DNA of 36,595 bases from an uncultured Solibacteraceae bacterium (GCA_964541065.1 CAZIRH010000001.1:1-36595), one strand, 5' to 3'; positions 8,687 to 25,537 are shown, counted from the first letter of the stretch. Notes: generated from the letters alone by a model not told the origin. Numbers and translations: made by a program.

Positions 8687-11600
8687 TCAGAACAGGATGC
8701 GTGCCCGGAGCCAGATGTTCCGGCTGGGGAAGCGCTGTGCCGCGCGATCGCTGCCCATCAGCGACGCCGTGCTGCCGAAAGCCGCCTGTCCCACGGTGAG
8801 CTCGGCGGAGCTCGAAGGATTGTTCCAGTTCGGGTGGTTGAGCAGGTTCTCTGAGGAAAGGCTGAACCACAGTTCTTTGTTCTCCAGGAAGCGGAACCTC
8901 TTGGTGAGGCTGAGGCTCAGATGCCAGAAGCCGGGTCCCAGGAGGACGTTTCTGCCCGAGTTGCCCAGGACGGTCGCCGCCGGATTGCTGAACGCGGACG
9001 GGTCGAACCACTTGACCGACGCACCTCCGGTCTGTTTCGGCCCGTTGTTCCCGTCCCCGATGCGGTCCGGCCGGGCCACCTGGCCGCAGGTAGCACCGGT
9101 CAGCGGGTTCGTGCCGGACCGGCAGGGAGTGAAGTATTGCCCGCTCCCGGAAAAAAACTCCGGGGAGAGTTCCCAGCCGCTCACGGTGTGGCTGGCCCAC
9201 GCCGGCAGGCCACTCCCTAACTTCTGGCCGCGGCCGAACGGCAGGATCCACAAACCCATGGCGCTGAAGGAGTGCCGGCGCTGGTAACCCACCTGGCCGC
9301 GGTCCAGAGAGCGATTGAAAGCGTTGGAGCTCGTCCCATTGGCGTCGTTCTCGCTTTCCACAATGTCGGAAATGTTCTTGGCGAACGCATAGCCGGCCTG
9401 GAACATGAAGCCGTTCCGGAACCGCCGGCGGGCGTCCAGGATCAGGCCGTGGTAGATCTGGTTGCCCCCATTGTCCAGGTAAGCGATTGTGCCGCCGTAA
9501 CCATAGGCGGAGTAAGGCCTCGAGCGGTTGGTGGTGTCGCCCGGCGTTACCCGCTGGTTAATGTCCCGGCTGTAGATCAGGTTGGTGGTCTTGGTGCCCA
9601 TATAGGAAGCGCGGAACGCGGTCTCCCGGAGCGACTTCTCCAGCGTCAGGTTCCACTGCTGGACGTACGGGTTCGTTATCCGTGGATTGAAGCCGTTCGC
9701 CGTCAGACTGGGGGGGGCCGCCTCCCCGGTCACCACGGCCGGGAAGGGGTAGGGGAACCGAAAGGCCGTGGAGGCCGCGGAGGCGGGAACGTTGTCATAT
9801 CGCGGGTTTCCCCGGTTGAGTAAGCCGCCGGTGGCCATCGTCCCCACGACGCCCTGGCCGATGATGTCGGTGAACTTCCCCCAGGCGCCGCGCACGACGA
9901 AGCTGGAGGAGCCGCGCGGGCGCCAGGCGAAGCCGATCCGCGGGGCCAGGTTGTTGCGGTCCGCGAAACTGAGCGTACGCTCGGGCAGTCCCACCTGGGC
10001 CGCTTCCAGTATCCTCACGTTCGGATAGTTGGCGGCGAAGGCGCTGTTGACGGGCGTGTTCTGCGCCGCCTTGATCATCCCGCCGCTGGCCGGGTCGAAA
10101 TTGTAGAGGGCGTTGTTCTTGTTGTAGATCGGTACCTGGTAGTCCCAGCGGAGGCCCAGGTTCAGGGTGAGATCGCGCCGGACCTTGTAATCATCCTGGA
10201 AGAACAGCCCGTAGTTGGTGCTCCTCATGTACTGGTTCGGATTGATCCCGGTCGCCGTCACGTAGGTCGGGATGCCCAGCAGGAAATCCGCGTAGGCCGC
10301 TCCGGTGTAGGTAGTTTGAAAGAAGAAGTTGCCGAAGGCGCCCTGGGGGATCTGCCAGTAATTGGGCTGTTCGAGATAAACGTTGAGGCCGCCTTTGAAG
10401 GTGTGGCGGTCGTGGATCCAGGACACCGTATCCGTCAACTGGTAGCTGGGCGAGATGTTCGTCGTCGTGTTCTGTTGTGCGAGCGCCGTCAGCCCGGTGA
10501 TATTGATCACCGGGAAGCCCCGCACATCGGGCGCCGGCAGGTTGGAAGGAAACTGGATGCCGAGCTCGCGCAGCACCTCCAGGCCGTTACGCGCGCCGCC
10601 TGCTGGGCTGTTGTCGCGCATGAATCCGACCCGGAATTCATTGAGCAGGTTGGCGCTCAGGTTGTAGGTGTAGGACACGGCGCCGTGATAGAGCTTCCGG
10701 GTGCTGACCCGGAAGCCCATGGTGGGGAGATTGCTGTCGTAGGCCCGGTTGTTGAACTGGCTGCCTCCCACGGACCCGTAGAACCAGTGCCGGTCGCCAA
10801 CCCGGTGATCGAGCCGGAGGTCGAGGGCCTCCTCGCGCGTAGTCCCGCTGGGCCCGATGGTCTCATGATTACGGGTGATCGCGTTGGGGTCCGGCGTATT
10901 CGGTTCCGGGTAGTAAGTGGTTTGGATGTTCCTGGACACCGCATTGATCCGGCTGGCCGGGATGGTGTTGTTCGGGAATGGCGTACGGCTGCTGTCGGTA
11001 TCCCGAACCGCTACCGAAAATACGCCGTTGCGCATGGCCAGGGTGGGAACATCCGCAGTGTAGAGTTGGGTGCCGCCTTGACGCTTGGACTGCCAGCTCA
11101 GGCTGAAGAACGTCCTGTCGCGACCGTTGTAAAGCTTGGGCAGGCGGATCGGCCCGTTCACGTTTCCGCCGAACTGGTGAAAGATCAAGGAAGGTTTCCC
11201 GGTGGTCGAAGTCGCCACGCGCGCGTTCAGCCCCGGCGCGTTGTAGTAATAGTAGACGTCGCCGTGCAGGGCGTTGCCCCCGCTTTTGGAAATCTGCTGG
11301 TACACGGCGGGCGAAGCGTACTCGGCAGAGTTGTTTCCGCCCAGCACGCGGACTTCCTGGACTCCCTCGGCGCTCATCAGGGTCGAACCCGACGGCGAGC
11401 CCGAACCTATCGGGGAGGTGATGCCATCGACCTGGAACTCCGACTGGCTGGGGTAGGCGCCGCCGATGCTGAAGCGGGTCCCGCTGGCGGTGTTTTGCAC
11501 CAGCGGGTTTAAGCGCAACAGCGTCCACGGGCGCTGCGAGTCGGTGGTGGGGCTGAGGAAATGCACCTCGCCGCCGGCGATCGAGGTACCGAGGGAGGAG

Positions 11601-12004
11601 GTATCGGTTTCGAGCAGGCCGGGTGTGGATGTGACCGTAACGGTTTCGGTGAGCGCCCCCAATTGCATGGCTGCGTCTAGGCGCACGGTCTGGCGGGAGC
11701 CCAGGGCGATATCTGCTTTCACGAAGGCTTTGAACCCCTCGCGGTTCACCTGGAGCCGGTAAGTTCCCGCCACCAGGTTCGGGAACTCGTACAGCCCCGC
11801 CTCGTTGGCGGTGGCCTGACGGGCGATGTTGGTTTCCTGGTGAGTCAGCGTCACCTGGGCACCGGGCATGACCGCGCCGTTCGGGTCGGTGACCGTGCCG
11901 AGAATGGTTCCGAAGGTGGATTGCGCCAGCGCTGGGCTGGCGGCGAACGCCGCAGCCAGCAGCGGCACGCAGACCAGAGCTTTCAGGGTCGAGCCAGTAC
12001 GCAT
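8687..12004 (-). CDS. TonB-dependent outer-membrane receptor, CarboxypepD_reg N-terminal domain type (about 1105 aa)
   Basis: Track ORF 8687..12367 is over-extended. ATG 12004 is preceded by GAGGAGGAG and gives MRTGSTLKALVCVPLLAAAFAASPALA|QSTFGTILGTVTDPNGAVMPGAQVTL...GTYRLQVNREGFKAF. A long beta-barrel region follows, ending in ...WLRARILF (terminal aromatic residue typical of outer-membrane barrels). Confidence 0.9.
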   Translation of the reverse strand: MRTGSTLKALVCVPLLAAAFAASPALAQSTFGTILGTVTDPNGAVMPGAQVTLTHQETNIARQATANEAGLYEFPNLVAGTYRLQVNREGFKAFVKADIALGSRQTVRLDAAMQLGALTETVTVTSTPGLLETDTSSLGTSIAGGEVHFLSPTTDSQRPWTLLRLNPLVQNTASGTRFSIGGAYPSQSEFQVDGITSPIGSGSPSGSTLMSAEGVQEVRVLGGNNSAEYASPAVYQQISKSGGNALHGDVYYYYNAPGLNARVATSTTGKPSLIFHQFGGNVNGPIRLPKLYNGRDRTFFSLSWQSKRQGGTQLYTADVPTLAMRNGVFSVAVRDTDSSRTPFPNNTIPASRINAVSRNIQTTYYPEPNTPDPNAITRNHETIGPSGTTREEALDLRLDHRVGDRHWFYGSVGGSQFNNRAYDSNLPTMGFRVSTRKLYHGAVSYTYNLSANLLNEFRVGFMRDNSPAGGARNGLEVLRELGIQFPSNLPAPDVRGFPVINITGLTALAQQNTTTNISPSYQLTDTVSWIHDRHTFKGGLNVYLEQPNYWQIPQGAFGNFFFQTTYTGAAYADFLLGIPTYVTATGINPNQYMRSTNYGLFFQDDYKVRRDLTLNLGLRWDYQVPIYNKNNALYNFDPASGGMIKAAQNTPVNSAFAANYPNVRILEAAQVGLPERTLSFADRNNLAPRIGFAWRPRGSSSFVVRGAWGKFTDIIGQGVVGTMATGGLLNRGNPRYDNVPASAASTAFRFPYPFPAVVTGEAAPPSLTANGFNPRITNPYVQQWNLTLEKSLRETAFRASYMGTKTTNLIYSRDINQRVTPGDTTNRSRPYSAYGYGGTIAYLDNGGNQIYHGLILDARRRFRNGFMFQAGYAFAKNISDIVESENDANGTSSNAFNRSLDRGQVGYQRRHSFSAMGLWILPFGRGQKLGSGLPAWASHTVSGWELSPEFFSGSGQYFTPCRSGTNPLTGATCGQVARPDRIGDGNNGPKQTGGASVKWFDPSAFSNPAATVLGNSGRNVLLGPGFWHLSLSLTKRFRFLENKELWFSLSSENLLNHPNWNNPSSSAELTVGQAAFGSTASLMGSDRAAQRFPSRNIWLRARILF

Positions 12005-12044
12005 GAGCGGACTCCTCCTCGCTGAACAGTACCCGAGAAGGGCG

Positions 12045-12091
12045 CACGCGACAAGTTTCACGCGCCGGGCTAACCGTGGGTTTAACGTTAC
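12045..12091 (-). promoter_or_regulatory. Conserved upstream element, copy A, in front of the TonB-receptor operon. Includes a possible -35 (TTGTCG 12054..12049), with a possible -10 (TACTGT 12031..12026) downstream
   Basis: The minus-strand sequence is GTAACGTTAAACCCACGGTTAGCCCGGCGCGTGAAACTTGTCGCGTG. It aligns with copy B at 14076..14029 and lies at the same distance from the start codon (41 vs 39 nt). It contains the palindrome TAACGTTA. Confidence 0.5.
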
Positions 12092-12122
12092 AAGCTGTGG
12101 CGGCTCAATCAGATCCCCCGCC

Positions 12123-12857
12123 TCAGCCCTTGCGAGGCCGACCCACGAAGCGCACCCAGCCGAACGACTCCGGCGTATGAAACGACCGAGCCGGGGACGC
12201 CATCGGCGACCAGGTGCTGCTCTGACGGCCGGTGATGCCCCCCGTTCGATACAGGTTGAGCCGCCACAGGTCGCCCGGGCGGGGTGGGATGTGGGCCGCG
12301 TCCCGGGCGAAGTTGCGGAACGGGATGGCCAGTTCCACCATCCAGTGGTCGTCCTCCGGGCGTTCATCCTTGCTCGGCAGGCCGTGAAACGTGGTCCGGT
12401 AGCGGACCCCCTCGGGCTCCCAGGTGGGCGGCCCTGTCCACCACTCGGTCCGGCACCGGTTCAGCATGGCTCCTATGGCGTTGATCTCGAAGGTGTAGTA
12501 GTTGGTGACCTTCGCGGGATTCGGGCTCAGGAAGATCTCCACGCAGTCGTCATTCGAGACCGGCCCGTGTCGCTCGGTGACGTAGGCGGATATGTGCCGG
12601 TCGTGGCAGTAGTAGCCCAGGTAGAGGTTCTCGTCGTCCCAGAGCATGCGCACGACCGTCGGCTCGACGGGGCCCGGTTTCCACCTAACGGCGCGGAACT
12701 CGCCCACCGGCGGCACTTGGCGCCAGGCCGGCTCGTCCAGCCGGGCGTCCACTACGATGGGCGAGGAGGCCCGCTGGACGTCGTAGCGGGGCAGGGGCTG
12801 CGCTGCCGCGGTGGTGAGCCACACCACGGCAAGCCCCAAGATGAGCGAGAGCTTCAC
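12123..12857 (-). CDS. Secreted carbohydrate-binding family 9-like (CBM9/DOMON-like) protein
   Basis: Track ORF 12123..13580 is over-extended. GTG 12857 forms a GTGA overlap with the upstream stop at 12854-12856 and gives (M)KLSLILGLAVVWLTTAAA|QP. The segment VVDARLDEPAWRQVPPVGEF...WDDENLYLGYYCHD...DDCVEIFL...YYTFEINA is the typical CBM9-like pattern. Confidence 0.65.
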   Translation of the reverse strand: MKLSLILGLAVVWLTTAAAQPLPRYDVQRASSPIVVDARLDEPAWRQVPPVGEFRAVRWKPGPVEPTVVRMLWDDENLYLGYYCHDRHISAYVTERHGPVSNDDCVEIFLSPNPAKVTNYYTFEINAIGAMLNRCRTEWWTGPPTWEPEGVRYRTTFHGLPSKDERPEDDHWMVELAIPFRNFARDAAHIPPRPGDLWRLNLYRTGGITGRQSSTWSPMASPARSFHTPESFGWVRFVGRPRKG

Positions 12858-13990
12858 CGCAGCCCGGGGCCTTGGGAAGCCAGGCCAGGATCGAATTCCT
12901 TCACCAGCCGCAAGAATTCTTTGGGGTGGATGATCTTGGAGGTTCCGTCCCTGATATATGCCGACTGGAGCAGGAGCTGGAACATCTGCTCGCCGCTCAG
13001 CTCGGGCCGCACCTGCCAACCCAGGGCCATCACGCCGGCCACGTAAGGGATGGCCCAACTGAGGCCGCCGCGCAAACCGTACTGGTATCCGAAATCGCCC
13101 CGGTCGTATTCCTCGGCCTGGGTCCGGGGGCCGGTGGGGGCTGCCAGGCGGTCCGGGGGTACTATTGAGACGGGCCCGTCGGGGGCGCCGGGCACGCAGT
13201 TCGCCGGATCCTCGGGGTCGCCTCCGCCGAACCAGCACCGGGAGATGCGGCCTCGGTGCGCCGTGCAGTCGAGTACCAGCAGACCTTCCGCTTCGGCGAT
13301 CGCGGTGACCCTGTCCCACCTCTCGTTGTTGTTCTGAAACGGAGAACCCGGGCCGGAGGGCGACGCGGAAACCGAGACCACGCGAATCTTGCTCTCCGGC
13401 GGAAGCTTGCGATTCTCTTCCAGGATCCACTCCAGGGCCACGGCGTAGTATTCGGCGTCCGCCAGCCAGGAGGGAGCCGCCGCGAAGTAGACAATCGCAC
13501 CAGGCGCCGTGCCGACGTTCGTCCCGACCAGCAGGCTGGTCACGGCCGGCCCGTGCATACTGCTCTGCTCGGGTCCGCAACCCGTGTCCTTGTACGCCGC
13601 GATCTTGCCCTCAAACTCGGGATGGTCGAGGTACATGGGCTGGTCGATAATGGCCACCCGCACGCCTTGGCCCGTGATGCCCTGCTCGTGAATTTCGCGG
13701 ACACCCAGCCCCGGGTTGATGGCGGCTTTGAGCAGGTCTTCCGGCTTGACGTCGGCCGGCATCCGTGAGGCGTCGGGCCAGAGCGTCTTCTGATTGAACT
13801 TCAGCGTGGGCAGCAAGTACCCCATTCCGGAGAGATCCATCTGGCTGACGTCTTTGGCCCCTGGAACGGGCCGGCCTCGCATCCAACGCACGTCGTCGTA
13901 GGGCTGGAGGGTGGGAGCCTGGCCCACGGCCATCGCACATAGAAGTGTGCCGGCCGCACACAGCCGGCCGACGCTGGTTGCCAGGAGCAT
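12854..13990 (-). CDS. Secreted S8-family (subtilisin-like) serine peptidase
   Basis: Track ORF 12854..14629 is over-extended, running antisense into the DUF364 gene. ATG 13990 has GAGGAG upstream and gives MLLATSVGRLCAAGTLLCAMAVG. Catalytic-triad contexts are GVRVAIIDQ (Asp), SSMHGPAVTS (His) and GGLSWAIPYVAGV (Ser). Confidence 0.8.
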   Translation of the reverse strand: MLLATSVGRLCAAGTLLCAMAVGQAPTLQPYDDVRWMRGRPVPGAKDVSQMDLSGMGYLLPTLKFNQKTLWPDASRMPADVKPEDLLKAAINPGLGVREIHEQGITGQGVRVAIIDQPMYLDHPEFEGKIAAYKDTGCGPEQSSMHGPAVTSLLVGTNVGTAPGAIVYFAAAPSWLADAEYYAVALEWILEENRKLPPESKIRVVSVSASPSGPGSPFQNNNERWDRVTAIAEAEGLLVLDCTAHRGRISRCWFGGGDPEDPANCVPGAPDGPVSIVPPDRLAAPTGPRTQAEEYDRGDFGYQYGLRGGLSWAIPYVAGVMALGWQVRPELSGEQMFQLLLQSAYIRDGTSKIIHPKEFLRLVKEFDPGLASQGPGLR

Positions 13991-14028
13991 AGTGGCACTC
14001 CTCGGTGAGAGTCTAGGCTTCCAGCGGT

Positions 14029-14076
14029 CACGAGTGCAAGTGTCATCCCGCCGGGCAACGGTTGGTCTAACGTTAC
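14029..14076 (-). promoter_or_regulatory. Conserved upstream element, copy B, in front of the S8 peptidase / CBM9 operon and within the divergent region shared with the DUF364 operon. Possible -35 is TTGCAC 14039..14034 and possible -10 is TAGACT 14015..14010
   Basis: The minus-strand sequence is GTAACGTTAGACCAACCGTTGCCCGGCGGGATGACACTTGCACTCGTG. By hand alignment about 37 of 48 positions are identical to copy A. Confidence 0.5.
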
Positions 14077-14124
14077 CGGCGAATCCTGCGGGCGGCGGCC
14101 CACCGGCCGCGGCCGGCTGCGGTG

Positions 14125-14130
14125 TACAAT
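14125..14130 (+). promoter_or_regulatory. Possible -10 box (TACAAT, preceded by TG) for the DUF364 operon
   Basis: ggTGTACAAT lies 53 nt upstream of GTG 14183. There is no convincing -35 hexamer. Similar TG-adjacent boxes occur at 30110-30117 (TGTATACT, upstream of 30140) and on the minus strand at 22001..21996 (TACAAT, upstream of the GH28 gene). Confidence 0.3.
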
Positions 14131-14182
14131 CGCAGGTACAAGCAGAGCGCTGGATGGCGGAGCCGCAACCCGAGGGACGATC

Positions 14183-14926
14183 GTGATTGTCGATGAGCTG
14201 CTGGAGCGGATGGCGCCCAAGGCGGAGGGCCGCACGGTCTCGACGGTGTGCGTGGGACTGGCCTATACCGCGGTGTGCCTCAAAGGGGGCGGCTGCGGCC
14301 TGGCCTACACTTTTCACGAAGACGCCGGCGAGGGCTGCTCGGTGGTCAAAGAGGCCGGGACCTTGGCCGGACGCTCCGCCGGGGAGCTGGCCCGCTGGGT
14401 CAAGACGCTGGATGCCACCAGCATGGCCCTGGGAGTGGCCACCCTCAACGCCTTGGTTGAGCCGCCGGCGGGGGCCAGGGAGGCCGATGTCACCGAGCTC
14501 ATCGAGGTGTCCCCTACGGATGTCGTGGGCATGGTGGGCTACTTCGCTCCGCTGGTAAGCGTCTTGCGAGAGCGCGCCGCCCGCCTGCACATCTTCGAGC
14601 GGCGGCCCAGGGACCTGGCGGGCGAGCACCCCGACTGGACGGCGCCGGTCCTGCTTCCAGAGTGCGACGTGGTGATCATCTCCGGCACCGCAGTCATCAA
14701 CCGCACCATCGACGCGCTACTGGCGCACGTCACCCGGGCCCGCGAGGTCGTGATCCTGGGGGCCTCCACGCCGCTGGTGCCGGAGGTGTTCGCCGCGCGA
14801 GGCGTGACGCTGCTCTCTGGAGTGCAGGTGCGCGACGCGGACCGCGTCCTTCGGGTGGTCAGCGAGGGCGGCGGGATGCGGCGGTTCTCCGACGCGGTGC
14901 GGAAGCTGAGCGTGCGGTTGAAATGA
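14183..14926 (+). CDS. DUF364/DUF4213-type Rossmann-like protein (family proposed to be heavy-metal/chelate related; function undemonstrated)
   Basis: 247-aa ORF starting at GTG 14183, with GAGGGA 5 nt upstream. The family-like pattern is ...GLAYT...ALGVATLNAL...VGMVGYF.PL...LPECDVVIISGTAVINRTIDALL...VVILGASTPLVPEVFAARGVTLLSGVQV.D. This assignment is from memory of the family, not from a search. Confidence 0.7.
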   Translation: MIVDELLERMAPKAEGRTVSTVCVGLAYTAVCLKGGGCGLAYTFHEDAGEGCSVVKEAGTLAGRSAGELARWVKTLDATSMALGVATLNALVEPPAGAREADVTELIEVSPTDVVGMVGYFAPLVSVLRERAARLHIFERRPRDLAGEHPDWTAPVLLPECDVVIISGTAVINRTIDALLAHVTRAREVVILGASTPLVPEVFAARGVTLLSGVQVRDADRVLRVVSEGGGMRRFSDAVRKLSVRLK

Positions 14927-17148
14927 GCATTGGCCGCCTGGCGCTGATCGTTCTGGCAGCGGCCTTGTGCGGAGCGCAGGAGCCGGCCGCCCCGTTCCTC
15001 GAATGGATGACGGAGGCGCAGCGCCTCTCCGCTCAGGTCAAGACGGTCGGGGACGCTGACGCCGCGGCCCTCGCGCGCCTTCGGGAGGACGTCGAAGGGC
15101 TGCGGCAGGCGGTCTCGCAGTGGCTCCTGAGGAATCCGCAGATACGGGTTGTTGCTCCTACAGCGGACTACGCCTCGCGTGCCTCCCTGGCGGCAAGTAT
15201 TGATGACCTGCGGGCGTTGATCGAGGAGCTCATCCGGCTCAATCCGGCCGGGCCTTTCTTCCTTGGTCGTATCGAGGTGCAGGTGACGGCCGAGGCTCCC
15301 CAAGTTCCCAGCGCCTACCTCATCAGCGGCGCCGAGATCGCGGCCTACGATCACGCCACCGTGACCGGCGCGGTGAGCATGGCGCCCGGCGTCACCATTT
15401 CCAGGGTCGGCGCGCGCAACGAGGGCGTGGCATACGTGCGCGGCTTCGACATGCGGCAGACGCCGGTCTTCCTGGACGGCATGCCGGTCTCGGTGCCCTA
15501 CGACGGCTACCTCGATCTGGACCGCTTCCTGGCGCAGGACATCGCCGAGATCCACGTGGTCAAGGGCTACAGCTCTCCCATGTGGGGACCGAATACGCTG
15601 GGCGGCGCCATCAACCTGGTCTCGCGCAAGCCTGTGGAGCGGTTTCACGGAGAAGTGGGGGTGGGCTACGAGTCCGGGCGGGCGTTCACCGGCACGGCCG
15701 GGGCGGGCGCCCGGATGAGGAAGCTCTACTGGCAGGCCAGCGGCGCCTGGCTGGCGCGCGACTTTTTCCCGCTCTCGGGGAGCTTTGCGGGCAACCCGCT
15801 CCAGCCTGCGCAGCGGCGGGAGAACTCCGATCGCCGCGATGCCCGCGGCCACTTCAAGCTGGGGCTGACGCCCGGCGCCGGAGACGAGTACGCGTTCGGC
15901 TACTTGAGGCAGAGCGCACGCAAGGGACAGCCGCCTTATGCCGGCAGCGACCTTGCCGTCAAGGTCCGCTACTGGCGCTGGCCCGAGTGGGGCAAGGACA
16001 GCCTGTACCATGTCGCTAACAAATCCCTCGGCCGGAGCGGCTATCTGCGGCTCCGCGCCTACTACGACACGTTCCACAACCGCCTGGATAGTTTTGACGA
16101 CGCCACTTACTCCACCCAGAACCGCTCCAGCTCTTTCGTCAGCCTGTACGACGATCATTCCTATGGCGGGAGGCTGGAAGCGGGAACCAACTCCCTGGCG
16201 CGGCAGGTCATCAAGACCTCAGTGTTCTGGAAGGACGACGCGCACCAGGAACACAACCTGGGCGAGCCGCAACGCTCGTTCCGGTCCCGCACGTTGTCCG
16301 CCGGGCTGGAGGATGCGATTCGCCTGAGCAACGCCACTCAGGCTGTGGTGGGCTTCAGCGCCGACCGCCTGGACGTCTTGCAGGCCCAGGATTTCCAGAA
16401 GGGCGTGGTCATGCCCTTCCCGGTGGGCGGCCTGTGGGCCTTCAACCCACAGGTCGCCGTACTGCACGCGCTCTCGGAGGTGGATCGGCTGCGGTTCACC
16501 TTCGCCCGCAAGACCCGGCTGCCCACCCTGAAGGACCGCTACTCCTACCGGATCGGCCGGTCGCTTCCGAACCCGGATCTGAAAGAGGAGCGGGCCAATC
16601 ACCTGGAAGCCGGGTACTCGCGGTCCTTCGGCGCGGGGACGCTGCTGGAAGCCGCGGTCTTCCATGCGGCGATCTCGAACCTGATGCAGGAATTCTATGT
16701 GGCGCCGCAGTTGTTTCAGTTTCGAAACGTGGGGCGGGTCGAGCACTCCGGGTTCGAGTTCTCGGCGCGCACGGAGCGGCTGCGTCCGGCGACGATCCAC
16801 GCCCACTACGCCTTCTTGAACCGAACGAACGTCTCTCTGCCGGGCGTCCCGCTGATTCAGACGCCGCGTCACCAGGTCTTCGCCGCCGCCAGCGGCGCGC
16901 TTCGCGGCGGCGTGCTGCTCACCGGGAGCGCGCGTTTCGAGACCGGCCGCTGGGATTTGAGCGAGGGCGGCCGGTACGTGCGGCTGGCGGGCTTCGCCGT
17001 CGTGGACGGGAACGCCACCATCCCTCTGGGGCGCCACGTGGAGCTTCAAGCTGGGGCCAGAAATCTCACCGACCGGAACTACCTCCTCGACGAGGGCTTT
17101 CCGGAAGAGGGCCGCAGCTTCTTCCTCCATTTGCGGTACCGTTTCTAG
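14923..17148 (+). CDS. TonB-dependent transporter (plug + 22-strand barrel type) with an atypical ~95-aa N-terminal extension
   Basis: Track ORF 14662..17148 is over-extended. ATG 14923 forms an ATGA overlap with the DUF364 stop and gives MSIGRLALIVLAAALCGA|QE. There is a TonB-box-like RIEVQVTAEA. The plug reads VSMAPGVTISRVGARNEGVAYVRGFDMRQTPVFLDGMPV...VVKGYSSPMWGPNTLGGAINLVSRKP. The C-terminus is FFLHLRYRF. Confidence 0.9.
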   Translation: MSIGRLALIVLAAALCGAQEPAAPFLEWMTEAQRLSAQVKTVGDADAAALARLREDVEGLRQAVSQWLLRNPQIRVVAPTADYASRASLAASIDDLRALIEELIRLNPAGPFFLGRIEVQVTAEAPQVPSAYLISGAEIAAYDHATVTGAVSMAPGVTISRVGARNEGVAYVRGFDMRQTPVFLDGMPVSVPYDGYLDLDRFLAQDIAEIHVVKGYSSPMWGPNTLGGAINLVSRKPVERFHGEVGVGYESGRAFTGTAGAGARMRKLYWQASGAWLARDFFPLSGSFAGNPLQPAQRRENSDRRDARGHFKLGLTPGAGDEYAFGYLRQSARKGQPPYAGSDLAVKVRYWRWPEWGKDSLYHVANKSLGRSGYLRLRAYYDTFHNRLDSFDDATYSTQNRSSSFVSLYDDHSYGGRLEAGTNSLARQVIKTSVFWKDDAHQEHNLGEPQRSFRSRTLSAGLEDAIRLSNATQAVVGFSADRLDVLQAQDFQKGVVMPFPVGGLWAFNPQVAVLHALSEVDRLRFTFARKTRLPTLKDRYSYRIGRSLPNPDLKEERANHLEAGYSRSFGAGTLLEAAVFHAAISNLMQEFYVAPQLFQFRNVGRVEHSGFEFSARTERLRPATIHAHYAFLNRTNVSLPGVPLIQTPRHQVFAAASGALRGGVLLTGSARFETGRWDLSEGGRYVRLAGFAVVDGNATIPLGRHVELQAGARNLTDRNYLLDEGFPEEGRSFFLHLRYRF

Positions 17149-17149
17149 T

Positions 17150-18898
17150 TTGGCTCCAGTGACGCCTTCGGACCGCCGCGCCCCGCTTCCCGACCTGTGG
17201 CTGCGCGCCGCCGTGCTGGGCAGCCTGTGGGCCTCCATCGAGATCATCGCCGGCAGCTTCCTGCACAACCTGCGCGTGCCGCTGGCCGGGAGCATGCTGG
17301 CGGCCACGGGAGTGGCCTTACTGACCGGCGGGCACCAGGTCTGGCCGCGGCGGGGTCTGCTCTGGCGCGCCGGCCTGATCTGCGCCCTGATGAAGTCCAT
17401 CTCCCCGACCGCCGTGGTGATCGGGCCGATGGTCGGCATCTTCGCGGAGAGCCTGCTGCTGGAGGCGGCCACGCGACTGCTGGGCAGAGGCGCGCTCGGC
17501 TATGCGGCGGGCGGCGCGGCCGCCGTGTCCTGGAGTCTCTTCCAGAAGATCGCCAGCTCGATCATCACCTTCGGGCTGAACATCGTGACGCTGTACGTGA
17601 GGCTCTGCGAGTTCGCCGCCCGGAGCCTGCGCGTGACGTTCCTGGGCCCCTTCGAGGTGCTGGCGGCGCTCTTTGCGATCGACCTTCTGCTGGGCGTCAC
17701 GGTGGCGCTGGTGGCCATGCGGGTGGGCAGGAGGCTGGCAGGAGCGCCGGGGATTCCGCTGGAGAGCCTGGCGCAGGAAGGGGACCGCTGGGAAGGCTTC
17801 AAGCTGGAGGCCGGGCAGAGGTTCTCGGTTCTTCTGCTGGCGGGCGACCTGGTCGGGCTGGCCGCCGGACTGTGGCTGCTGGGCGCGCATTGGCTGTGGC
17901 TAGCCATGCTGTTCGTGGCGGCCTTCACCGTCTGGGTGGGGTGCCGCTATCGCAGCTCGCTGCGGCGGTTCCGCAGGCCCAGGCTGTGGATTGAGCTGGC
18001 AGTGCTGATGCTGCTGTCCGGGCTCCTGTTGGGGGCCAGCCGCAACAGCGGCGGGTGGACCTGGAGCGGCTTGCGGGAAGGCTTGGAGATGATCGTGCGG
18101 GCCTGGCTGGTCATCGCCGGCTTTGCGGCGGTCAGCGTCGAGCTGCGCAACCCGCGAATCATCGAGTGGTTCACCCGGCGGCGCCTGCGAGTGTTCTCTG
18201 ATGCCCTGGGCGTGGCTTTCGAGGCCCTGCCGGAATTCGCCGCCGCGATTTCGCGCGAGCGGCGCTTCTTCCGGCAACCCTTCGCGTCGCTGTCACGACT
18301 ACTCCGGCACGCGGATGCCTGGTTGCGGAGCTACCGCCAGAGGCACGCGCCCCAGGGCCGTGTGGTCTTCCTGGCGGGGGACTCGGGGCAGGGAAAGACC
18401 ACTCTGGCGGGGGAAGTGGTCGGGCGGTTGCGCGATCGTGGCGTCGTCGTGGGTGGCGTGTTGGCGCCGGGCTTCTGGCAGGAGGGCGAACGCTGGGGCT
18501 TCGACGTCGTGGACCTGCTGGACGGCCGGCAAATGCCCCTCTGCCGCCGGGACGTTCCCCCGGAGGACGCCTCGGCCGGGCCGTTTGGCTTCCTGGCCTC
18601 GGGCTTGAAGTTCGGGCGGGAGGCCCTGCGTGTGGAACGGCTTCGCGAGGCGGGGGCCGAGGTCGTGGTGGTGGACGAGGTGGGACCGCTCGAGTTGAAC
18701 GCGCAGGGCTGGGCGGCGGCGCTGGATGCCCTCACTGAGCAGTGGAGCGGTCCCATGTTATGGGTGGTGCGCCGGGGCTTGGTCGAGCAGGTGGCGGCGC
18801 ACTGGCTGACGACGCCAGTGGTAGTGGTGGATGTGCGCCAGACGGATGCCGCCGGCATCGCCGCCTGGCTCATGGGACCGGAAGCCGCCGCCAGTTGA
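17150..18898 (+). CDS. Fusion protein: N-terminal polytopic membrane domain (about 9 TM helices, no family recognised) plus a C-terminal THEP1/DUF2478-like P-loop NTPase
   Basis: 582-aa uninterrupted ORF beginning 1 nt after the transporter stop (TTG 17150, or GTG 17159). Hydrophobic helices include LWLRAAVLGSLWASIEIIAGSFL, GSMLAATGVALLTGG, VVIGPMVGIFAESLLL, FEVLAALFAIDLLLGVTVALVAM, FSVLLLAGDLVGLAAGLWLLG, WLWLAMLFVAAFTVWVG, LWIELAVLMLLSGLLLG and MIVRAWLVIAGFAAVSV. The C-terminal domain has Walker A (VVFLAGDSGQGKTTL) and Walker B (VVVVDEVGPLE). Confidence 0.8.
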   Translation: MAPVTPSDRRAPLPDLWLRAAVLGSLWASIEIIAGSFLHNLRVPLAGSMLAATGVALLTGGHQVWPRRGLLWRAGLICALMKSISPTAVVIGPMVGIFAESLLLEAATRLLGRGALGYAAGGAAAVSWSLFQKIASSIITFGLNIVTLYVRLCEFAARSLRVTFLGPFEVLAALFAIDLLLGVTVALVAMRVGRRLAGAPGIPLESLAQEGDRWEGFKLEAGQRFSVLLLAGDLVGLAAGLWLLGAHWLWLAMLFVAAFTVWVGCRYRSSLRRFRRPRLWIELAVLMLLSGLLLGASRNSGGWTWSGLREGLEMIVRAWLVIAGFAAVSVELRNPRIIEWFTRRRLRVFSDALGVAFEALPEFAAAISRERRFFRQPFASLSRLLRHADAWLRSYRQRHAPQGRVVFLAGDSGQGKTTLAGEVVGRLRDRGVVVGGVLAPGFWQEGERWGFDVVDLLDGRQMPLCRRDVPPEDASAGPFGFLASGLKFGREALRVERLREAGAEVVVVDEVGPLELNAQGWAAALDALTEQWSGPMLWVVRRGLVEQVAAHWLTTPVVVVDVRQTDAAGIAAWLMGPEAAAS

Positions 18899-18913: not shown

Positions 18914-20374
18914 TCAGCGCGCCTCTGCCAGCCGCACCTGAGAGAGGAGGCGGGTGTAGCGCGCGTCCGAACGGAGGGGATCGAAGATGGGGTCCACTTT
19001 CAGCCAGGCCAGCCAGCCGTCCCGCTCCTGGCAGGCCTGCTCGAGGCCCTGGAAGGCGCGGCCCTGGTCGTGGAGGCCAATGTAGACGAAGACCCGGCTG
19101 ACGGGAGACACAAAGCCGCGCCGCGACCATTCTTCCAGCTCCTTCAACACGCCTTGCGCCGCGGTCTTCCGGCCCAGCACGCCGTAGCAGTAGCCCAGCC
19201 CTCCCAGGATCATGGGATTCCCGCCGGGCAGGCTTCTGGCCTTGAGGAACACGGCCAACGCTTCCTGGTGCATGGACTCGGCCAGGTAGGCCATGCCGAG
19301 ATGCATATGGCCGGAAGGGAAGTCGGGCTCAAATTCCAGCGCCTTGCGGTATTCCTGAATGGCCTCGTCATGGCGGCGCATGGAATAGAGTGTGCGGGCG
19401 AGGTCGCGGTGGACGGCGCGGGACAGGGGGTCCAGAACCTGCGCCCGACGGATTTCCGCGAGGGCTTCTTCCAGCCGTCCCACCGCGCGGAGATAGCCGG
19501 CGTGCCAGTGGCGAGCAGTGGCAGAGTTGGGGTTCAGCGCGAGCGCGTGGCGATAGTCTTGCTCAGCGCCGGACCAGTCCCAGTCGTAGAACGACTTCAC
19601 AAAGCCGAGCGCAGCCCAAGCCTCGGCCAGGGTGTTGTCGGTTTCCAGCGCGCGCTCGGCCGCCGCTTTGGCCTTGGGCATCACGTCGCGCGGCGCAGCG
19701 ACGCCGTAGGAGGCCAGCAGAGCATAGGACTCAGCCAGCCCGGCATAGGCCAGCGAGTAACTGGCATCCTCCGCCAGCGCCTGGTGATAGTGCTCGATGG
19801 ACTTCCGCAAGCCGTCTTCCGTGCGCTTGCCCGACTGGTAGCGTCCCCGGAGGTAGGCCTCGTGGGCCTTGGGGTTGGCGGCGCGCGGCGGAGGCTGAGG
19901 GCGCACACGCTCGGGGCGCCGCACCCTGGTGACCGCCAGCCAAGCCAGGAGTCCGGCCACTACCACTGTCACGAGTGCTGCCCATAGCTTCCAGCGGCGC
20001 AGCCAGCCGAGCCGGGGCGCGGGCGGGCGCGCAGAGAACACCGGAGCGTAGCTTCCCTTGGCCAGCTCGATGAGCACGGCATCCTCGCGCCCTGCCCCGG
20101 CGTAGTACTGCGCCAGCCGGGAGCGGAGCCGGTGGGCCTCGACGCGGACCACCGTGTCGATGCGCGGATCGAAGGACTCGCCTCTACCGAACACCTCCAG
20201 CCCCAGGACCTGCTCCTTGAGCTGATCGCCCCGGCCCGCCAGGGTCTCTTGCGTGATGAACCGCAGGAACCGGCTGAGGCGGTCCGCGTGCGCGAAGCCT
20301 TTGCTGGCGAGGATCTTCTCGAGGTGCTCCTCGACCGCCTGACGCGCGACCTCCGAATCAGCTCGTCGCGGCAC
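18914..20374 (-). CDS. Membrane-anchored one-component regulator candidate: divergent OmpR/CadC-type winged-helix domain, one TM helix, periplasmic TPR repeats
   Basis: Track ORF 18914..20569 is over-extended. GTG 20374 is preceded by GGAGGTGGAGG (5 nt spacing) and lies 28 nt after the GH28 stop. The N-terminal segment LSRFLRFITQETLAGRGDQLKEQVLGLEVFGRGESFDPRIDTVVRVEAHRLRSRLAQYY...VLIELAKGSYAPVF follows the trans_reg_C pattern. The TM helix is WKLWAALVTVVVAGLLAWLAV. About 300 aa of TPR-like repeats follow (AYAGLAESYALL, AWAALGFV, ALALNPNSA, ALEFEPDF...). Confidence 0.7.
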   Translation of the reverse strand: MPRRADSEVARQAVEEHLEKILASKGFAHADRLSRFLRFITQETLAGRGDQLKEQVLGLEVFGRGESFDPRIDTVVRVEAHRLRSRLAQYYAGAGREDAVLIELAKGSYAPVFSARPPAPRLGWLRRWKLWAALVTVVVAGLLAWLAVTRVRRPERVRPQPPPRAANPKAHEAYLRGRYQSGKRTEDGLRKSIEHYHQALAEDASYSLAYAGLAESYALLASYGVAAPRDVMPKAKAAAERALETDNTLAEAWAALGFVKSFYDWDWSGAEQDYRHALALNPNSATARHWHAGYLRAVGRLEEALAEIRRAQVLDPLSRAVHRDLARTLYSMRRHDEAIQEYRKALEFEPDFPSGHMHLGMAYLAESMHQEALAVFLKARSLPGGNPMILGGLGYCYGVLGRKTAAQGVLKELEEWSRRGFVSPVSRVFVYIGLHDQGRAFQGLEQACQERDGWLAWLKVDPIFDPLRSDARYTRLLSQVRLAEAR

Positions 20375-20402
20375 CGGGCACCTCCACCTCCATACACTAT
20401 AC

Positions 20403-21965
20403 TCACCGGGCGCGCCGGGCGCCCGCATTGGCCAGCTCGCGCACGGCCGCTTCCGGGGCGCCGGCGAGCTCGATGCTGCGCTCCACCCGGGTGAGGTCGT
20501 TCCCGGTGAGCAGGATGCCGCGGCTGGCCGCGCCGCTGATGCGAGCGAAGACGCCTGCGCTCGCCGCACGCGCCCCGCGGATCATGGCCTCGGCGACATT
20601 GTTCAGCCACAGCACCGGCGCGGAGCCGGCCACCGTGCCGGTGCGGAAGCCATCGAGGGTCAGGTCCTTCACATCGTCGAAGATCATGGCCGGGCGCAGA
20701 TCCTCCTTCTCCCAGCGCACCTGGATGTTGGCCAGGGCCAGACCTTCGGCGTGCCGGGCGTAGAAACCGAAGGCGGGCAGGATGCCGAACATGGTGGCCT
20801 CGGGATACCTGGCGATCTGCTCGGGCACGTCCAGACCTCCGGGCGCGCGGTGGCCTCCCTCCATGGTGATGGTGATGTTGGAGAGCGTCACGCGGCGCAC
20901 CGGGTGAGCGGGGATGCCGGTCACCGAGGAGGTCACCGTACTGCCGCGGGCGACGATGTTGCTGATCGTGATGTTCTGAACCGAGCCGGGCACCGCCGGA
21001 TCCAGCCCGCGCCCGCGGTTACCCAGGCGCACGAACAGCGGGGCCTGCACGCCGGCCATCGTGAGGTTCGAGATCACCACCCCGTCGATGTGGGCCCCAT
21101 CCACCGATTCCAGGGAGACCCCCGAAATCGGCCGGCGGCCGCTCTGGCGCGCCAGCATGGTGCAGTTGGTGAGGGCCACGTCCCGCAGGTCGCCGCTGGA
21201 CTCGGTGCCGAACTTGAAGCAGTTGCAGTTGGTGCGCAGCACGCAGTTGGTGACCGTCAAGTGCTCGGTGCTCCGGCGGTTCGCCATGCCCATAGAAGGG
21301 CTGGCTTTGGGGCAGATGGCGTCGTCGTAGCTGTCCACGTAGCAGTTCGAGATGCGCACGTAGCGCGAAGCGTCGGGATCGATGCCGTCGGAGTAGCCGT
21401 TGAGGATGGTGACCCCGTCGATGTCGATGAAGTCCGTCCCCCAGAAGCTGATCGAGTAGTTCGGCGAGTTCTGGACGGTGATGCCGCGGAGGCTGACGTA
21501 CTGGCACAGCTTGAGGGCGATGGTCTTGGGACCGCCGCGCTTGGAACGGTTGCCGTCGATGACGCCCTGGCCCTCGATGGCGATGTGGTGGACGTTCTCC
21601 GCGGTCACCAGGCCGTAGCGAAAGTACGTGGTCTCGTGGTCGGAGACCGACTGGAAGGGGAGCGGCTCGTAGGGATCGAAGTCGGCGTTATCCGGGCTGG
21701 CCGCCAGCGTGGCGCCGTTGGCCAGGTGCATCGTCACGTAGCTCTTCAGGCGGACGGTTCCGCTCAGGTACGTGCCCGCCGCCAGCAGGACTGTCCCTCC
21801 GCCCCGGCCGGCGGCCGCATCGATGGCTTTCTGGATGGCTGCGGTGTCCTTGGTCACGCCGTCGCCCTTGGCCCCGAAATCCCGGACGTCGAAAGGGCCG
21901 GACGCCGGCACGCCTGGCCAGGGGACAGCCAGCAACAGCCCGCAGAGCGCAAGAGACGTTCTCAT
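20403..21965 (-). CDS. Secreted right-handed beta-helix glycoside hydrolase, GH28-like (pectate-lyase-superfamily N-terminal motif)
   Basis: ATG 21965 has GGGGAGGA upstream and gives MRTSLALCGLLLAVPWPGVPASG. Supporting motifs are FDVRDFGAKGDGVTKDTAAIQKAIDAAA, NGYSDGIDPD, SYDDAICPK and repeated beta-helix turns. The track start at 22037 is an extension. Confidence 0.75.
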   Translation of the reverse strand: MRTSLALCGLLLAVPWPGVPASGPFDVRDFGAKGDGVTKDTAAIQKAIDAAAGRGGGTVLLAAGTYLSGTVRLKSYVTMHLANGATLAASPDNADFDPYEPLPFQSVSDHETTYFRYGLVTAENVHHIAIEGQGVIDGNRSKRGGPKTIALKLCQYVSLRGITVQNSPNYSISFWGTDFIDIDGVTILNGYSDGIDPDASRYVRISNCYVDSYDDAICPKASPSMGMANRRSTEHLTVTNCVLRTNCNCFKFGTESSGDLRDVALTNCTMLARQSGRRPISGVSLESVDGAHIDGVVISNLTMAGVQAPLFVRLGNRGRGLDPAVPGSVQNITISNIVARGSTVTSSVTGIPAHPVRRVTLSNITITMEGGHRAPGGLDVPEQIARYPEATMFGILPAFGFYARHAEGLALANIQVRWEKEDLRPAMIFDDVKDLTLDGFRTGTVAGSAPVLWLNNVAEAMIRGARAASAGVFARISGAASRGILLTGNDLTRVERSIELAGAPEAAVRELANAGARRAR

Positions 21966-25029: not shown

Positions 25030-25167
25030 GCCCCTCGTCCGCTGTGCCCTTGCTACTGGCCGGCCGAGGCTCCGACGCGGAGTTCGCTGCGCTGAAATGA
25101 GGGAGCATGCTGATCGGCCTTCTTCTGGTCAGTTGGTGTACACTTCACTGCGAAAGGAGTTGCGACG

Positions 25168-25527
25168 ATGAAAACCACTCGAAGGCTCTGCCTGCTGGTG
25201 AGCTTTCTGCTGGCGGTGGCGGCCCTGGCTGCGGCCGCCGACATTGAGGGCATCTTGGTGGACCGCATGTGCTCGACCAAGATCATCAAGGAGGGGCAGA
25301 AGGCCGCCCAGGCGCACACGCGCGAGTGCGCCCTGATGCCCGACTGCGCGGCCAGCGGCTACGGCGTCTACACCGCCGAAGGGAAGTTCCTCACCTTCGA
25401 CGCCGCCGGCAACAAGCAGGCCGAGCAGGCCTTGCGTGCCTCGAAGAAGCGGAACAACCTGCGCGTGGTGGTCTCGGGCCAGCAGGCCGGCGACACCATC
25501 CAGGTCACGAGCTTGAAGCTGCTGTAG
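25168..25527 (+). CDS. Small secreted protein of unknown function with a Cys/His/Met cluster (candidate periplasmic metal-binding protein)
   Basis: 119-aa ORF with AGGAG 8 nt upstream. Signal peptide is MKTTRRLCLLVSFLLAVAALAAAA|D. The mature part contains DRMC...AHTRECALMPDCAASGYG. GC3-rich codon usage matches the neighbouring genes. Confidence 0.7.
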   Translation: MKTTRRLCLLVSFLLAVAALAAAADIEGILVDRMCSTKIIKEGQKAAQAHTRECALMPDCAASGYGVYTAEGKFLTFDAAGNKQAEQALRASKKRNNLRVVVSGQQAGDTIQVTSLKLL

Positions 25528-25537
25528 CCGACGGGGC

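Follow-up and report, generated by a model that had tools for sequence, protein, structure and literature searches.

The 36,595-nt stretch of DNA analysed here in its entirety (the window), from an uncultured Solibacteraceae bacterium, carries at positions 14183-18898 three genes which, we suggest, constitute an operon for the acquisition of molybdenum (Mo), and possibly also of tungsten (W), with the third gene encoding the importer. Gene 1 encodes a protein of the DUF364 family, gene 2 a TonB-dependent transporter (TBDT), and gene 3 a protein in which ∼400 membrane residues are joined to a THEP1-type P-loop NTPase. We assign this reading a probability of roughly 0.6; that the genes belong, in a broader sense, to a Mo/W-related system is highly probable. 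We favour molybdenum because relatives of genes 2 and 3 in several phyla sit behind molybdenum cofactor (Moco) riboswitches and beside molybdenum genes, and Mo-linked regulation and neighbourhoods are documented below for all three families. A first-pass annotation of the region had proposed a module for the acquisition of a metal, metallophore or cofactor. The riboswitches, neighbouring genes for Mop, ModE-N, MocA, XdhC and XDH proteins, and a modEABC context support this proposal and narrow it to Mo/W. We infer which substrate is carried and in which direction, what part nucleoside triphosphate (NTP) hydrolysis plays, and which chemistry the DUF364 protein performs.

Molybdenum cofactor riboswitches and molybdenum genes

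Neighbourhoods were compared for 85 non-redundant gene 3 loci (designated by L numbers), of which the open reading frames (ORFs) were clustered and representatives annotated, and which were re-scanned with locally built hidden Markov models. The Moco riboswitch (Rfam RF01055; gathering score 36) is located immediately upstream of the gene 3 homologue in L036 (9733-9895, 67 bits; gene start at ∼10001-10028) and in L055 (9702-9859, 62.9 bits), and likewise upstream of the homologue in L066 (9853-9977, 44.9 bits), where it was first found with a covariance model made from L036 and L055; it was not found in the 51 other loci scanned with Rfam. The gene 3 proteins of L036 and L055 are only 57% identical, and in both loci the unit of riboswitch and gene 3 is followed, 40-60 nt further on, by a same-strand TBDT of the gene 2 subfamily (37% identity over 645 residues, E 3e-147). 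The gene downstream in L066 resembles, by eye, an acyl-CoA synthetase and has no similarity to gene 2. Moco riboswitches precede genes for molybdate transporters, Moco biosynthesis and Moco enzymes (PMC2408646). The three carriers are an Ignavibacteriota, a Chlorobiaceae-labelled and a Marinimicrobia metagenome-assembled genome (MAG), and these lineages are not in the list given with the original description of the motif (PMC2408646).

Genes for Mo enzymes or Moco maturation are present in 18 of the 50 loci that are well flanked (at least 5 kb on both sides), and at least one tracked partner is present in 30 of them. Across all 85 loci, a MocA-like NTP transferase is encoded in 15 (directly adjacent in nine, with L088, which has a stand-alone membrane form of gene 3, as a further case), XdhC in eight, and the molybdopterin and FAD subunits of XDH in 12-14 (the molybdopterin subunit in 12), one of them an XdhB equivalog that exceeds its cutoff with 1021 bits. 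The Mo-hydroxylase set YgfK, SsnA, YgeY and YgeW accompanies gene 3 in ∼10 loci; in NCBIfam, the label of the YgfK/SsnA/YgeY set is that of Mo-hydroxylase genes linked to selenium metabolism. In L001, which is not among the well-flanked loci, gene 3 is immediately preceded by a Mop gene (TIGR00638, above cutoff). A gene with a ModE-N domain lies immediately upstream of the DUF364-gene 3 pair in L053, and a TonB gene directly upstream of gene 3 in L064; FmdE-domain proteins are encoded in four loci. In L006, genes 1 to 3 directly follow a same-strand XdhC/MocA-like/Fer2/MoCoBD/FAD operon. Two Bacteroidales loci (L019:6174-9863 and L054:6250-9904) have an operon of a FecCD permease, an ABC ATPase, a TrmO_N+FmdE fusion and a DsbD_2-like protein, with gene 3 last; no binding-protein gene is found in the stretch examined. 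None of the 85 loci has a homologue of ModA or ModB within 10 kb, in keeping with a role of gene 3 in place of ModBC and not as a helper to it.

As a separate observation, gene 3 is embedded in clusters resembling ygeW-ygfK of E. coli in L014, L016, L020, L027, L028, L035, L038, L044, L068 and L076, in which the equivalog cutoffs of YgfK, SsnA and YgeY are exceeded and OTCase-like and pyridoxal-phosphate enzymes are encoded alongside.

Gene 2 has molybdenum-linked relatives outside the three-gene arrangement as well, for which four contexts were sampled (Azoarcus olearius, L090, L091 and L092). In A. olearius, the homologue (43% identity) comes after modE-modA-modB-modC, and both Mop and a ModE_N+PBP_like regulator are encoded close by. 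In L092, the homologue (48% identity) is divergent from two genes, one for a small Oxidored_molyb protein and one for a regulator with helix-turn-helix and PBP_like domains; the binding domain of this regulator aligns with the C-terminal end of PRK14498, annotated as 'molybdopterin biosynthesis protein' (E 1e-58). The L091 homologue has a similar small protein and a di-haem peroxidase alongside. One gene 2 homologue bears the label 'prrA', a name reminiscent of the prrA-modD-yc73-fepC cluster of E. coli. We also note that gene-2-type TBDTs outside the three-gene arrangement are repeatedly paired with an Oxidored_molyb-like protein of 166-172 residues and a di-haem cytochrome c peroxidase or DHOR-type protein (Table 1). 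For the family of gene 1, the link to molybdenum comes from the literature: in Methanococcus maripaludis a DUF364 gene lies within the modABC operon, which is co-fit with nifH (bioRxiv 10.1101/2024.03.05.583561), and DUF364 has been associated with transporters of molybdate, tungstate, vanadium and iron (PMC2954201).

Operon structure and conservation of gene order

Three co-directional ORFs on the + strand fill positions 14183-18898 and are coupled start to stop, exactly as the first-pass annotation had read them: gene 2 begins within an ATGA overlap at 14923-14926, where its ATG meets the stop codon TGA of gene 1 (read directly as GGTTGAAATGAGCATTG), and its own stop codon TAG (17146-17148) is followed by in-frame starts TTG at 17150 and GTG at 17159, the former placing gene 3 one nucleotide past the TAG.

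The same order of genes recurs in three Acidobacteria loci (L005, L006 and L008; gene 3 identity 71, 56 and 73%, respectively) and in the Bacteroidetes locus L070, of which gene 3 is 34% identical and the TBDT was checked with Pfam. The arrangement is hence syntenic in relatives from two phyla, one of the comparisons by which the first-pass annotation had wanted its proposal to be judged. DUF364 is the commonest partner of gene 3 (13 of 85 loci): in five loci, i.e., the window, L005, L006, L008 and L070, a TBDT lies in between, and in eight loci from Bacteroidota and Elusimicrobia the DUF364 gene is directly upstream of gene 3, with ends overlapping or nearly abutting and no TBDT. TBDTs of the gene 2 subfamily accompany gene 3 in 14 loci, among them loci from KSB1, Ignavibacteriota and a Chlorobiaceae-labelled MAG, and are located upstream, downstream on the same strand, or convergently. 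In several loci, genes of ∼1,060 codons that directly precede gene 3 were considered as further TBDTs and rejected, being heterogeneous (e.g., TMEM260-like).

In eight loci (L004, L007, L009, L010, L012, L022, L031 and L059) the position of DUF364 upstream of gene 3 is taken by a gene for a class-I S-adenosylmethionine (SAM) methyltransferase-like protein, in some of them as a triad of TBDT, methyltransferase-like gene and gene 3. The best, weak NCBIfam matches of this protein are CpaM and the DVU_1556 family, and no homology to DUF364 was detected with hhalign (probability 0.7%); judged by sequence, the exchange looks like a non-orthologous displacement. In two Bacteroidales loci (L072:6843-8883 and its equivalent in L084), genes for a Porin_O_P phosphate-selective-porin-like protein and a double rhodanese are directly upstream of the DUF364-gene 3 pair, a hint that an anion porin may stand in for the TBDT and that there may be a link to sulfur transfer.

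The gene 3 family is large. A word-indexed search returned 577 relatives, of which the best 120 are all full-length (∼560-730 residues, 38-92% identity), and at least 570 loci encode a member when one genome per species is scanned. The best 80 of these loci belong to Acidobacteriota, Bacteroidota, Ignavibacteriota, KSB1, Chlorobiota, Elusimicrobia and Marinimicrobia, some MAG labels being doubtful (e.g., 'Synechococcus' for L049). With the membrane part as the sole query, an exhaustive phmmer search yielded 828 cluster representatives at 50% identity, 286 of them at E≤1e-30, a set in which fused forms (∼570 residues) are mixed with stand-alone membrane forms (∼390-410 residues). In L023:4578-6299 and L088:1409-3097 the gene 3 homologue is split into a membrane ORF (393 residues) and a separate downstream ORF, reflecting either a two-gene version or a frameshift; these split forms agree with the many stand-alone membrane proteins of ∼390-410 residues in the representative library.

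Gene 3: a membrane domain fused to a THEP1-type NTPase

The C-terminal part of gene 3 is a bona fide member of the NTPase_1 family by both sequence and fold. Pfam assigns residues 406-550 to NTPase_1/THEP1 (E 2e-21, 77.2 bits; cutoff 23.9), with a weak match to DUF2478, and NCBIfam to PRK13695 (E 2e-17). The Walker A (GDSGQGKT, residue 410) and Walker B (VVVVDE, residue 505) motifs are intact and invariant across the family, and Foldseek matches the fold to human NTPCR (2I3B; E 4e-5, TM-score TMt 0.66) and Aquifex THEP1 (1YE8; E 1e-4, TMt 0.74), both with probability 1.00. The domain does not reach the cutoffs for MobB (16.6 versus 26.6 bits, residues 405-436 only; TIGR00176, 14.3 versus 76.2 bits), and its likeness to MobB is confined to the P-loop.

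The membrane domain, in contrast, is without recognizable relatives. Residues 1-400 do not match any Pfam family at E≤10, as a whole or in halves, nor, as a whole, any NCBIfam model at E≤1; profile and single-sequence searches of the PDB sequences were likewise negative, no internal repeat was detected with hhalign (probability 0.1%), and the best Foldseek match in the PDB does not exceed TM-score 0.21 for the full-length and membrane-only models, bearing in mind that Foldseek is weak on all-helical membrane folds and the absence of a structural relative thus weak evidence. This suggests, but does not prove, a novel membrane fold, and the earlier view that the domain falls outside the characterized transporter families is borne out in Pfam, NCBIfam, PDB sequence and Foldseek searches. 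The AlphaFold models have pLDDT 87.6 and pTM 0.73 for full-length gene 3, and pLDDT 88.8 and pTM 0.86 for residues 1-402. The first-pass annotation had described about nine transmembrane helices fused in frame to a THEP1/DUF2478-like NTPase; the fusion holds, and the helix count is to be revised, since the model has ∼11 hydrophobic helices followed by three amphipathic cytoplasmic helices (residues 335-399) that lead to the NTPase. An alignment of 45 diverse homologues reveals invariant polar or charged residues in the predicted helices (E31, H39, R73, K82, S85, E100, R317, E331, R333 and N334) as well as the conserved motifs MKSISPxAVxxGPMxG and ELRNP.

Three established transporter types were tried for gene 3 and rejected. 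An ABC transporter is not supported: there is no ABC_tran match, no LSGGQ and no permease family, and ABC exporters align at TM-scores of 0.11-0.13. For an ECF transporter, such as an S-component fused to an EcfT-like part, neither half of the membrane domain has a Pfam match at E≤10 and no ECF chain is among the Foldseek matches; the ALPxF/ELRNP region may loosely resemble the coupling helices of EcfT. A carrier of the MFS or another secondary type, including the molybdate transporter family PF16983, has no Pfam match, and MFS structures align at TM-scores of 0.15-0.21. We found no description of a membrane-THEP1 fusion, and no DUF2478 paper of relevance, in the literature.

Genes 1 and 2

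The family assignments made for these two genes from the sequence alone are both upheld. Gene 1 contains DUF4213 (residues 8-91, E 7e-21, 74.7 bits) and DUF364 (residues 102-242, E 9e-46, 155.5 bits), both in the order of the family, and matches the DUF364 crystal structures 3NPG (E 4e-17, residues 12-229) and 3L5O (E 2e-15) among the PDB sequences. Gene 2 is a TBDT with plug (Pfam Plug; E 7e-15, 55.9 bits, cutoff 23.9) and barrel (TonB_dep_Rec_b-barrel; E 1e-28, 101.7 bits, cutoff 27), an N-terminal signal peptide (MSIGRLALIVLAAALCGA), a TonB-box-like stretch ahead of the plug (RIEVQVTAE, residues 116-124, assigned by eye), and a C-terminal aromatic residue (...RYRF, with Phe last). It does not reach the cutoff of any NCBIfam TBDT equivalog or subfamily; its best match is TIGR01783 (77.6 bits; cutoff 223.5), and BtuB scores 75.6 bits (cutoff 599.7).

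Gene 2 also contains a helical extension of ∼95 residues, placed after the signal peptide and ahead of the TonB box (window 14977-15267, residues ∼19-115); according to Pfam, it is not a signalling domain of the STN/FecA type. The extension is present in gene 2 orthologues of 727-764 residues and absent from those of ∼665 residues, e.g., in L005.

Proposed mechanism

In the molybdenum acquisition operon that we propose, the TBDT would admit scarce Mo through the outer membrane in the form of molybdate or of a complex with an organic ligand, energized by TonB-ExbBD, the genes of which would lie elsewhere in the genome; a high-affinity, energized outer-membrane step appears plausible in Mo-poor, sorptive habitats. 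Gene 3 would then perform the inner-membrane step in place of ModBC, its invariant intramembrane polar and charged residues binding and passing the Mo species. The cytoplasmic NTPase may dock on the three amphipathic helices and power or gate the passage in a FeoB- or ArsAB-like manner. Alternatively, it might deliver Mo for the synthesis of the cofactor, serving the MocA/XdhC-dependent enzymes as an adaptor of the MobB kind, an option that we retain because MocA-like genes are often adjacent. In the cytoplasm, the DUF364 protein would act as a partner that binds small molecules and either processes the imported species or passes it on; in other lineages, the class-I SAM-methyltransferase-like protein would substitute for it.

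Weighing of the evidence and alternative explanations

Several points weigh against this proposal. The window itself contains neither a Moco riboswitch nor a gene for a Mo enzyme or Moco synthesis; 20 of the 50 well-flanked loci lack a Mo-linked gene, DUF364 and a gene-2-type TBDT; and the neighbourhood statistics are based on crude ORF calling in the 80 best-matching loci, almost all of them from MAGs. Moco riboswitches may also precede biosynthesis genes or genes for Moco-using proteins, and one of the four gene 2 homologues sampled outside the three-gene arrangement (Bryobacter, L090) has no Mo context. The sole characterized DUF364 enzyme is a cyclase of a SAM derivative and not a metal-handling protein (PMC12930334). 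Finally, we infer that gene 3 transports and that its NTPase energizes the transport, and its membrane domain is unlike any known transporter.

Among the alternatives, the one that survives best, though rather unlikely, is a metallophore system, in which the DUF364 or methyltransferase-like protein would make a SAM-derived, nicotianamine- or opine-like chelator, gene 3 would export or re-import it at the expense of NTP, and the TBDT would take up the complex of chelator and metal (Mo/W or other), according to the logic of cntOLMI (pseudopaline). The only biochemically characterized DUF364 enzyme, Orf5, is a 4-methylazetidinecarboxylate synthase that cyclizes a SAM derivative in secondary metabolism; it is encoded in a Streptomyces non-ribosomal peptide gene cluster beside a radical-SAM methylase, and VioH, an enzyme of methyltransferase fold, performs the same cyclization chemistry (PMC12930334). 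It is thus suggestive that the same-strand gene before gene 3 is either DUF364 (13 loci) or methyltransferase-like (eight loci, some with a TBDT in front), that the TrmO_N part of the FmdE fusion in L019 and L054 is SAM-binding, that FecCD-type importers adjoin gene 3 in these two loci, and that chelates are the usual cargo of TBDTs. However, no homology was detected between the DUF364 and methyltransferase-like partners, no other biosynthetic enzyme (e.g., an opine dehydrogenase) and no known exporter family are encoded alongside, and many DUF364-gene 3 pairs, as well as the riboswitch-controlled gene of L066, have no TBDT nearby. Moreover, DUF364 also occurs in archaeal modABC operons, where there is no outer membrane to cross. 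Gene 1 shares with Orf5 and with 3L5O/3NPG the presence of both domains of the family, and differs from Orf5 in being part of a transport operon rather than of a non-ribosomal peptide cluster; Pfam scans of the window did not reveal a radical-SAM gene.

It is also unlikely that gene 3 encodes a membrane-anchored, MobB-like factor for the maturation or insertion of Moco, which would act with MocA and XdhC, for example in cytidylylation, sulfuration or selenation, or in delivery of the cofactor to Mo hydroxylases, with the TBDT and DUF364 being loosely coupled to it. In E. coli, mobA and mobB are paired, a parallel to the adjacency of gene 3 and MocA-like genes. MocA-like proteins and XdhC are the most frequent immediate neighbours, the selenium-linked YgfK/SsnA/YgeY set is found beside gene 3 in ∼10 loci, a rhodanese is encoded upstream of DUF364 in L072 and L084, the P-loop of gene 3 matches MobB weakly, and biosynthesis genes, too, are controlled by Moco riboswitches (PMC2408646). 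An anchor, however, would hardly require a polytopic domain of 400 residues in which about ten polar or charged intramembrane positions are invariant, and stand-alone forms of this domain exist; nor is it evident why XDH-family enzymes, being cytoplasmic, would need a membrane factor. The TBDT behind a Moco riboswitch, the TonB neighbour and the association of DUF364 with importers point to uptake instead.

Uptake of another nutrient, be it an iron-siderophore, nickel or cobalt, cobalamin or another cofactor, with the Mo neighbours found elsewhere not being applicable to the acidobacterial operon, appears improbable. Relatives of gene 2 carry the JGI label 'iron complex outer membrane receptor', and its best, weak NCBIfam matches are to siderophore, B12 and heme receptor families, yet none of these models comes near its cutoff. 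A ferritin gene is divergent from the three genes in L005, whereas those in L006 lie directly behind the same-strand XdhC/MocA-like/XDH operon. The window is devoid of Mo genes, but it is equally devoid of a cobalamin or other riboswitch; and a link of DUF364 to an iron transporter is on record as well (PMC2954201), against which stand independent links to Mo for all three families (including bioRxiv 10.1101/2024.03.05.583561). Lastly, a chance adjacency of three genes that do not cooperate is hardly credible: a compact genome might account for the spacing by itself, but not readily for the same order at 34-73% protein identity in two phyla, nor for the recurrence of DUF364-gene 3 and TBDT-gene 3 pairs in further arrangements and phyla.

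Comparison with known systems

When compared with the ModABC importers (and WtpABC/TupABC and MolBC-A), the proposed system is alike in its probable substrate and in regulatory logic, with the Moco riboswitch, ModE and Mop as neighbours in both; DUF364 is found inside modABC operons (bioRxiv 10.1101/2024.03.05.583561; PMC2954201), and the gene 2 homologue of Azoarcus ends a modEABC cluster. In contrast to these importers, the operon described here is devoid of a periplasmic binding protein, a BPD_transp_1 or FecCD permease and an ABC ATPase, and adds a TonB-dependent step at the outer membrane. With FeoB, gene 3 would share the concept of a polytopic metal permease fused to a small, non-ABC P-loop NTPase. 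The NTPase of FeoB is, however, an N-terminal GTPase of the TRAFAC class, while that of gene 3 is C-terminal and THEP1/RecA-like, and Pfam and Foldseek searches did not turn up any similarity of the membrane domains in sequence or fold; the comparison with FeoB is an analogy only. In the ArsA-ArsB system, likewise, the substrate is an oxyanion (a conjecture in our case) and a P-loop ATPase other than an ABC cassette is docked on the permease, but this system is an exporter of separate subunits; gene 3 has a marginal match to the P-loop of ArsA (E 0.12) and no Pfam match to ArsB.

As for its nucleotide-binding part, gene 3 is similar to MobB in that a small P-loop domain is encoded beside an NTP transferase of the MobA family. 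The characterized THEP1 proteins are soluble and stand-alone, with their physiological role being unknown (PMC1079890, PMC2700126), and gene 3 differs from THEP1 and human NTPCR (HCR-NTPase) by the fusion to a membrane domain. At the level of the operon, the arrangement is reminiscent of BtuB-BtuCDF, CntOLMI and the NikR-regulated TBDT with CbiMNQO, in which a TBDT is grouped with an inner-membrane component and a cytoplasmic enzyme; here, the inner-membrane partner (gene 3) is of no known family. Riboswitch control is a general pattern for TBDTs of B12 and thiamine (PMC5317091), and relatives of genes 2 and 3 are riboswitch-controlled likewise.

Other features of the window

The GC content of the window is ∼67%, and its gene content looks Acidobacteria-like. 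The coordinates of the operon and of its surroundings are compiled in Table 1. The S8 peptidase gene divergent from gene 1 has its likely start (MLLATSVG..., with a signal peptide) at 13990 on the - strand. In agreement with the first-pass annotation, Pfam scans of the larger ORFs of the window did not reveal a binding protein, a permease of the ABC or MFS type, TonB/ExbBD or a regulator. The window is free of Rfam RNAs at gathering thresholds, and the region upstream of gene 1 (13991-14182) does not match any Rfam family even at E≤10; its sole features are GC-rich palindromes at 14088-14124. The aligned upstream regions of the window, L005, L006 and L008 do not share an operator motif, and scans for promoters and terminators remained at background level.

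Further away, positions 23125-30011 constitute a probable copper/silver resistance block. Two large outer-membrane proteins with CarboxypepD_reg and OMP_b-brl_4 domains are encoded amid glycoside-hydrolase, GFO/IDH/MocA-oxidoreductase and creatininase genes, an assembly that resembles polysaccharide-utilization loci.

Table 1. Positions of the operon, its parts and other features; positions refer to the window unless a locus is named.
Feature	Position	Strand	Remarks
Upstream divergent intergenic region	13991..14182	.	192 bp; presumed promoter/regulatory region
Gene 1, DUF4213 + DUF364 protein	14183..14926	+	247 residues; enolase-N-like + Rossmann-like domains
Gene 2, TBDT	14923..17148	+	741 residues; Pfam Plug + TonB_dep_Rec_b-barrel
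Gene 2, signal peptide	14923-14976
Gene 2, TonB-box-like RIEVQVTAE	15268-15294
Gene 2, plug	15310-15609
Gene 2, barrel	15883-17067
Gene 3, N-terminal membrane domain	17150..18349	+	residues 1-400; AlphaFold2 models, 45-homologue alignment
Gene 3, C-terminal THEP1/NTPase_1-type P-loop NTPase	18362..18898	+	residues 405-582; including stop codon
Gene 3, Walker A	18377-18400	+
Gene 3, Walker B	18662-18679	+
S8 peptidase	12854-13990	-	divergent flank
TPR protein	18914-20569	-	convergent flank
Multicopper oxidase	23125-25029	+	copper/silver block
RND pump	25538-28795	-	copper/silver block
Membrane-fusion protein with HMBD + YHS metal-binding domains	28788-30011	-	copper/silver block
CarboxypepD_reg + OMP_b-brl_4 outer-membrane protein	3-1862	-
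CarboxypepD_reg + OMP_b-brl_4 outer-membrane protein	8687-12367	-	1226 residues
Gene-2-type TBDT paired with Oxidored_molyb-like/di-haem proteins	L091:9019-10615
Gene-2-type TBDT paired with Oxidored_molyb-like/di-haem proteins	L092:4214-6947
Gene-2-type TBDT paired with Oxidored_molyb-like/di-haem proteins	L089:10323-11663

Significance

To our knowledge, bacterial Mo uptake has been described almost entirely in terms of ABC systems of the ModABC type, and we know of no established account of how scarce Mo crosses the outer membrane, for example in the acidic, organic-rich soils inhabited by Acidobacteria. We found no description of a TonB-dependent route for Mo in the searchable literature. 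While the families of gene 1, of gene 2 and of the gene 3 NTPase are known, the inner-membrane partner appears, on the basis of sequence comparison, to be unprecedented, and Mo would be a new substrate for TonB-dependent uptake. It is then tempting to speculate, at somewhat less than even odds, that gene 3 represents a new class of NTPase-coupled inner-membrane importers with a hitherto unseen fold, unrelated to ABC, ECF, P-type and FeoB transporters, and that it constitutes, together with the gene 2 subfamily, the first TonB-dependent pathway for molybdate or a Mo-chelate, widespread in Acidobacteriota, Bacteroidota, Ignavibacteriota and related phyla.

If the proposal is correct, many uncultured lineages would possess a second route for Mo, consisting of a riboswitch-controlled TBDT and a non-ABC inner-membrane partner, and a first physiological role for the THEP1/NTPCR family as well as a metal-handling role for DUF364 would emerge. 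The proposal thereby provides testable functions for three orphan families, i.e., the membrane domain without a Pfam entry, THEP1/NTPase_1 (for the human member of which, NTPCR, no role is known) and DUF364. Annotation would likewise gain over the current 'nucleoside-triphosphatase THEP1' and 'iron complex receptor', and better metabolic models may be obtained of Mo-dependent purine catabolism in gut and sediment Bacteroidales.

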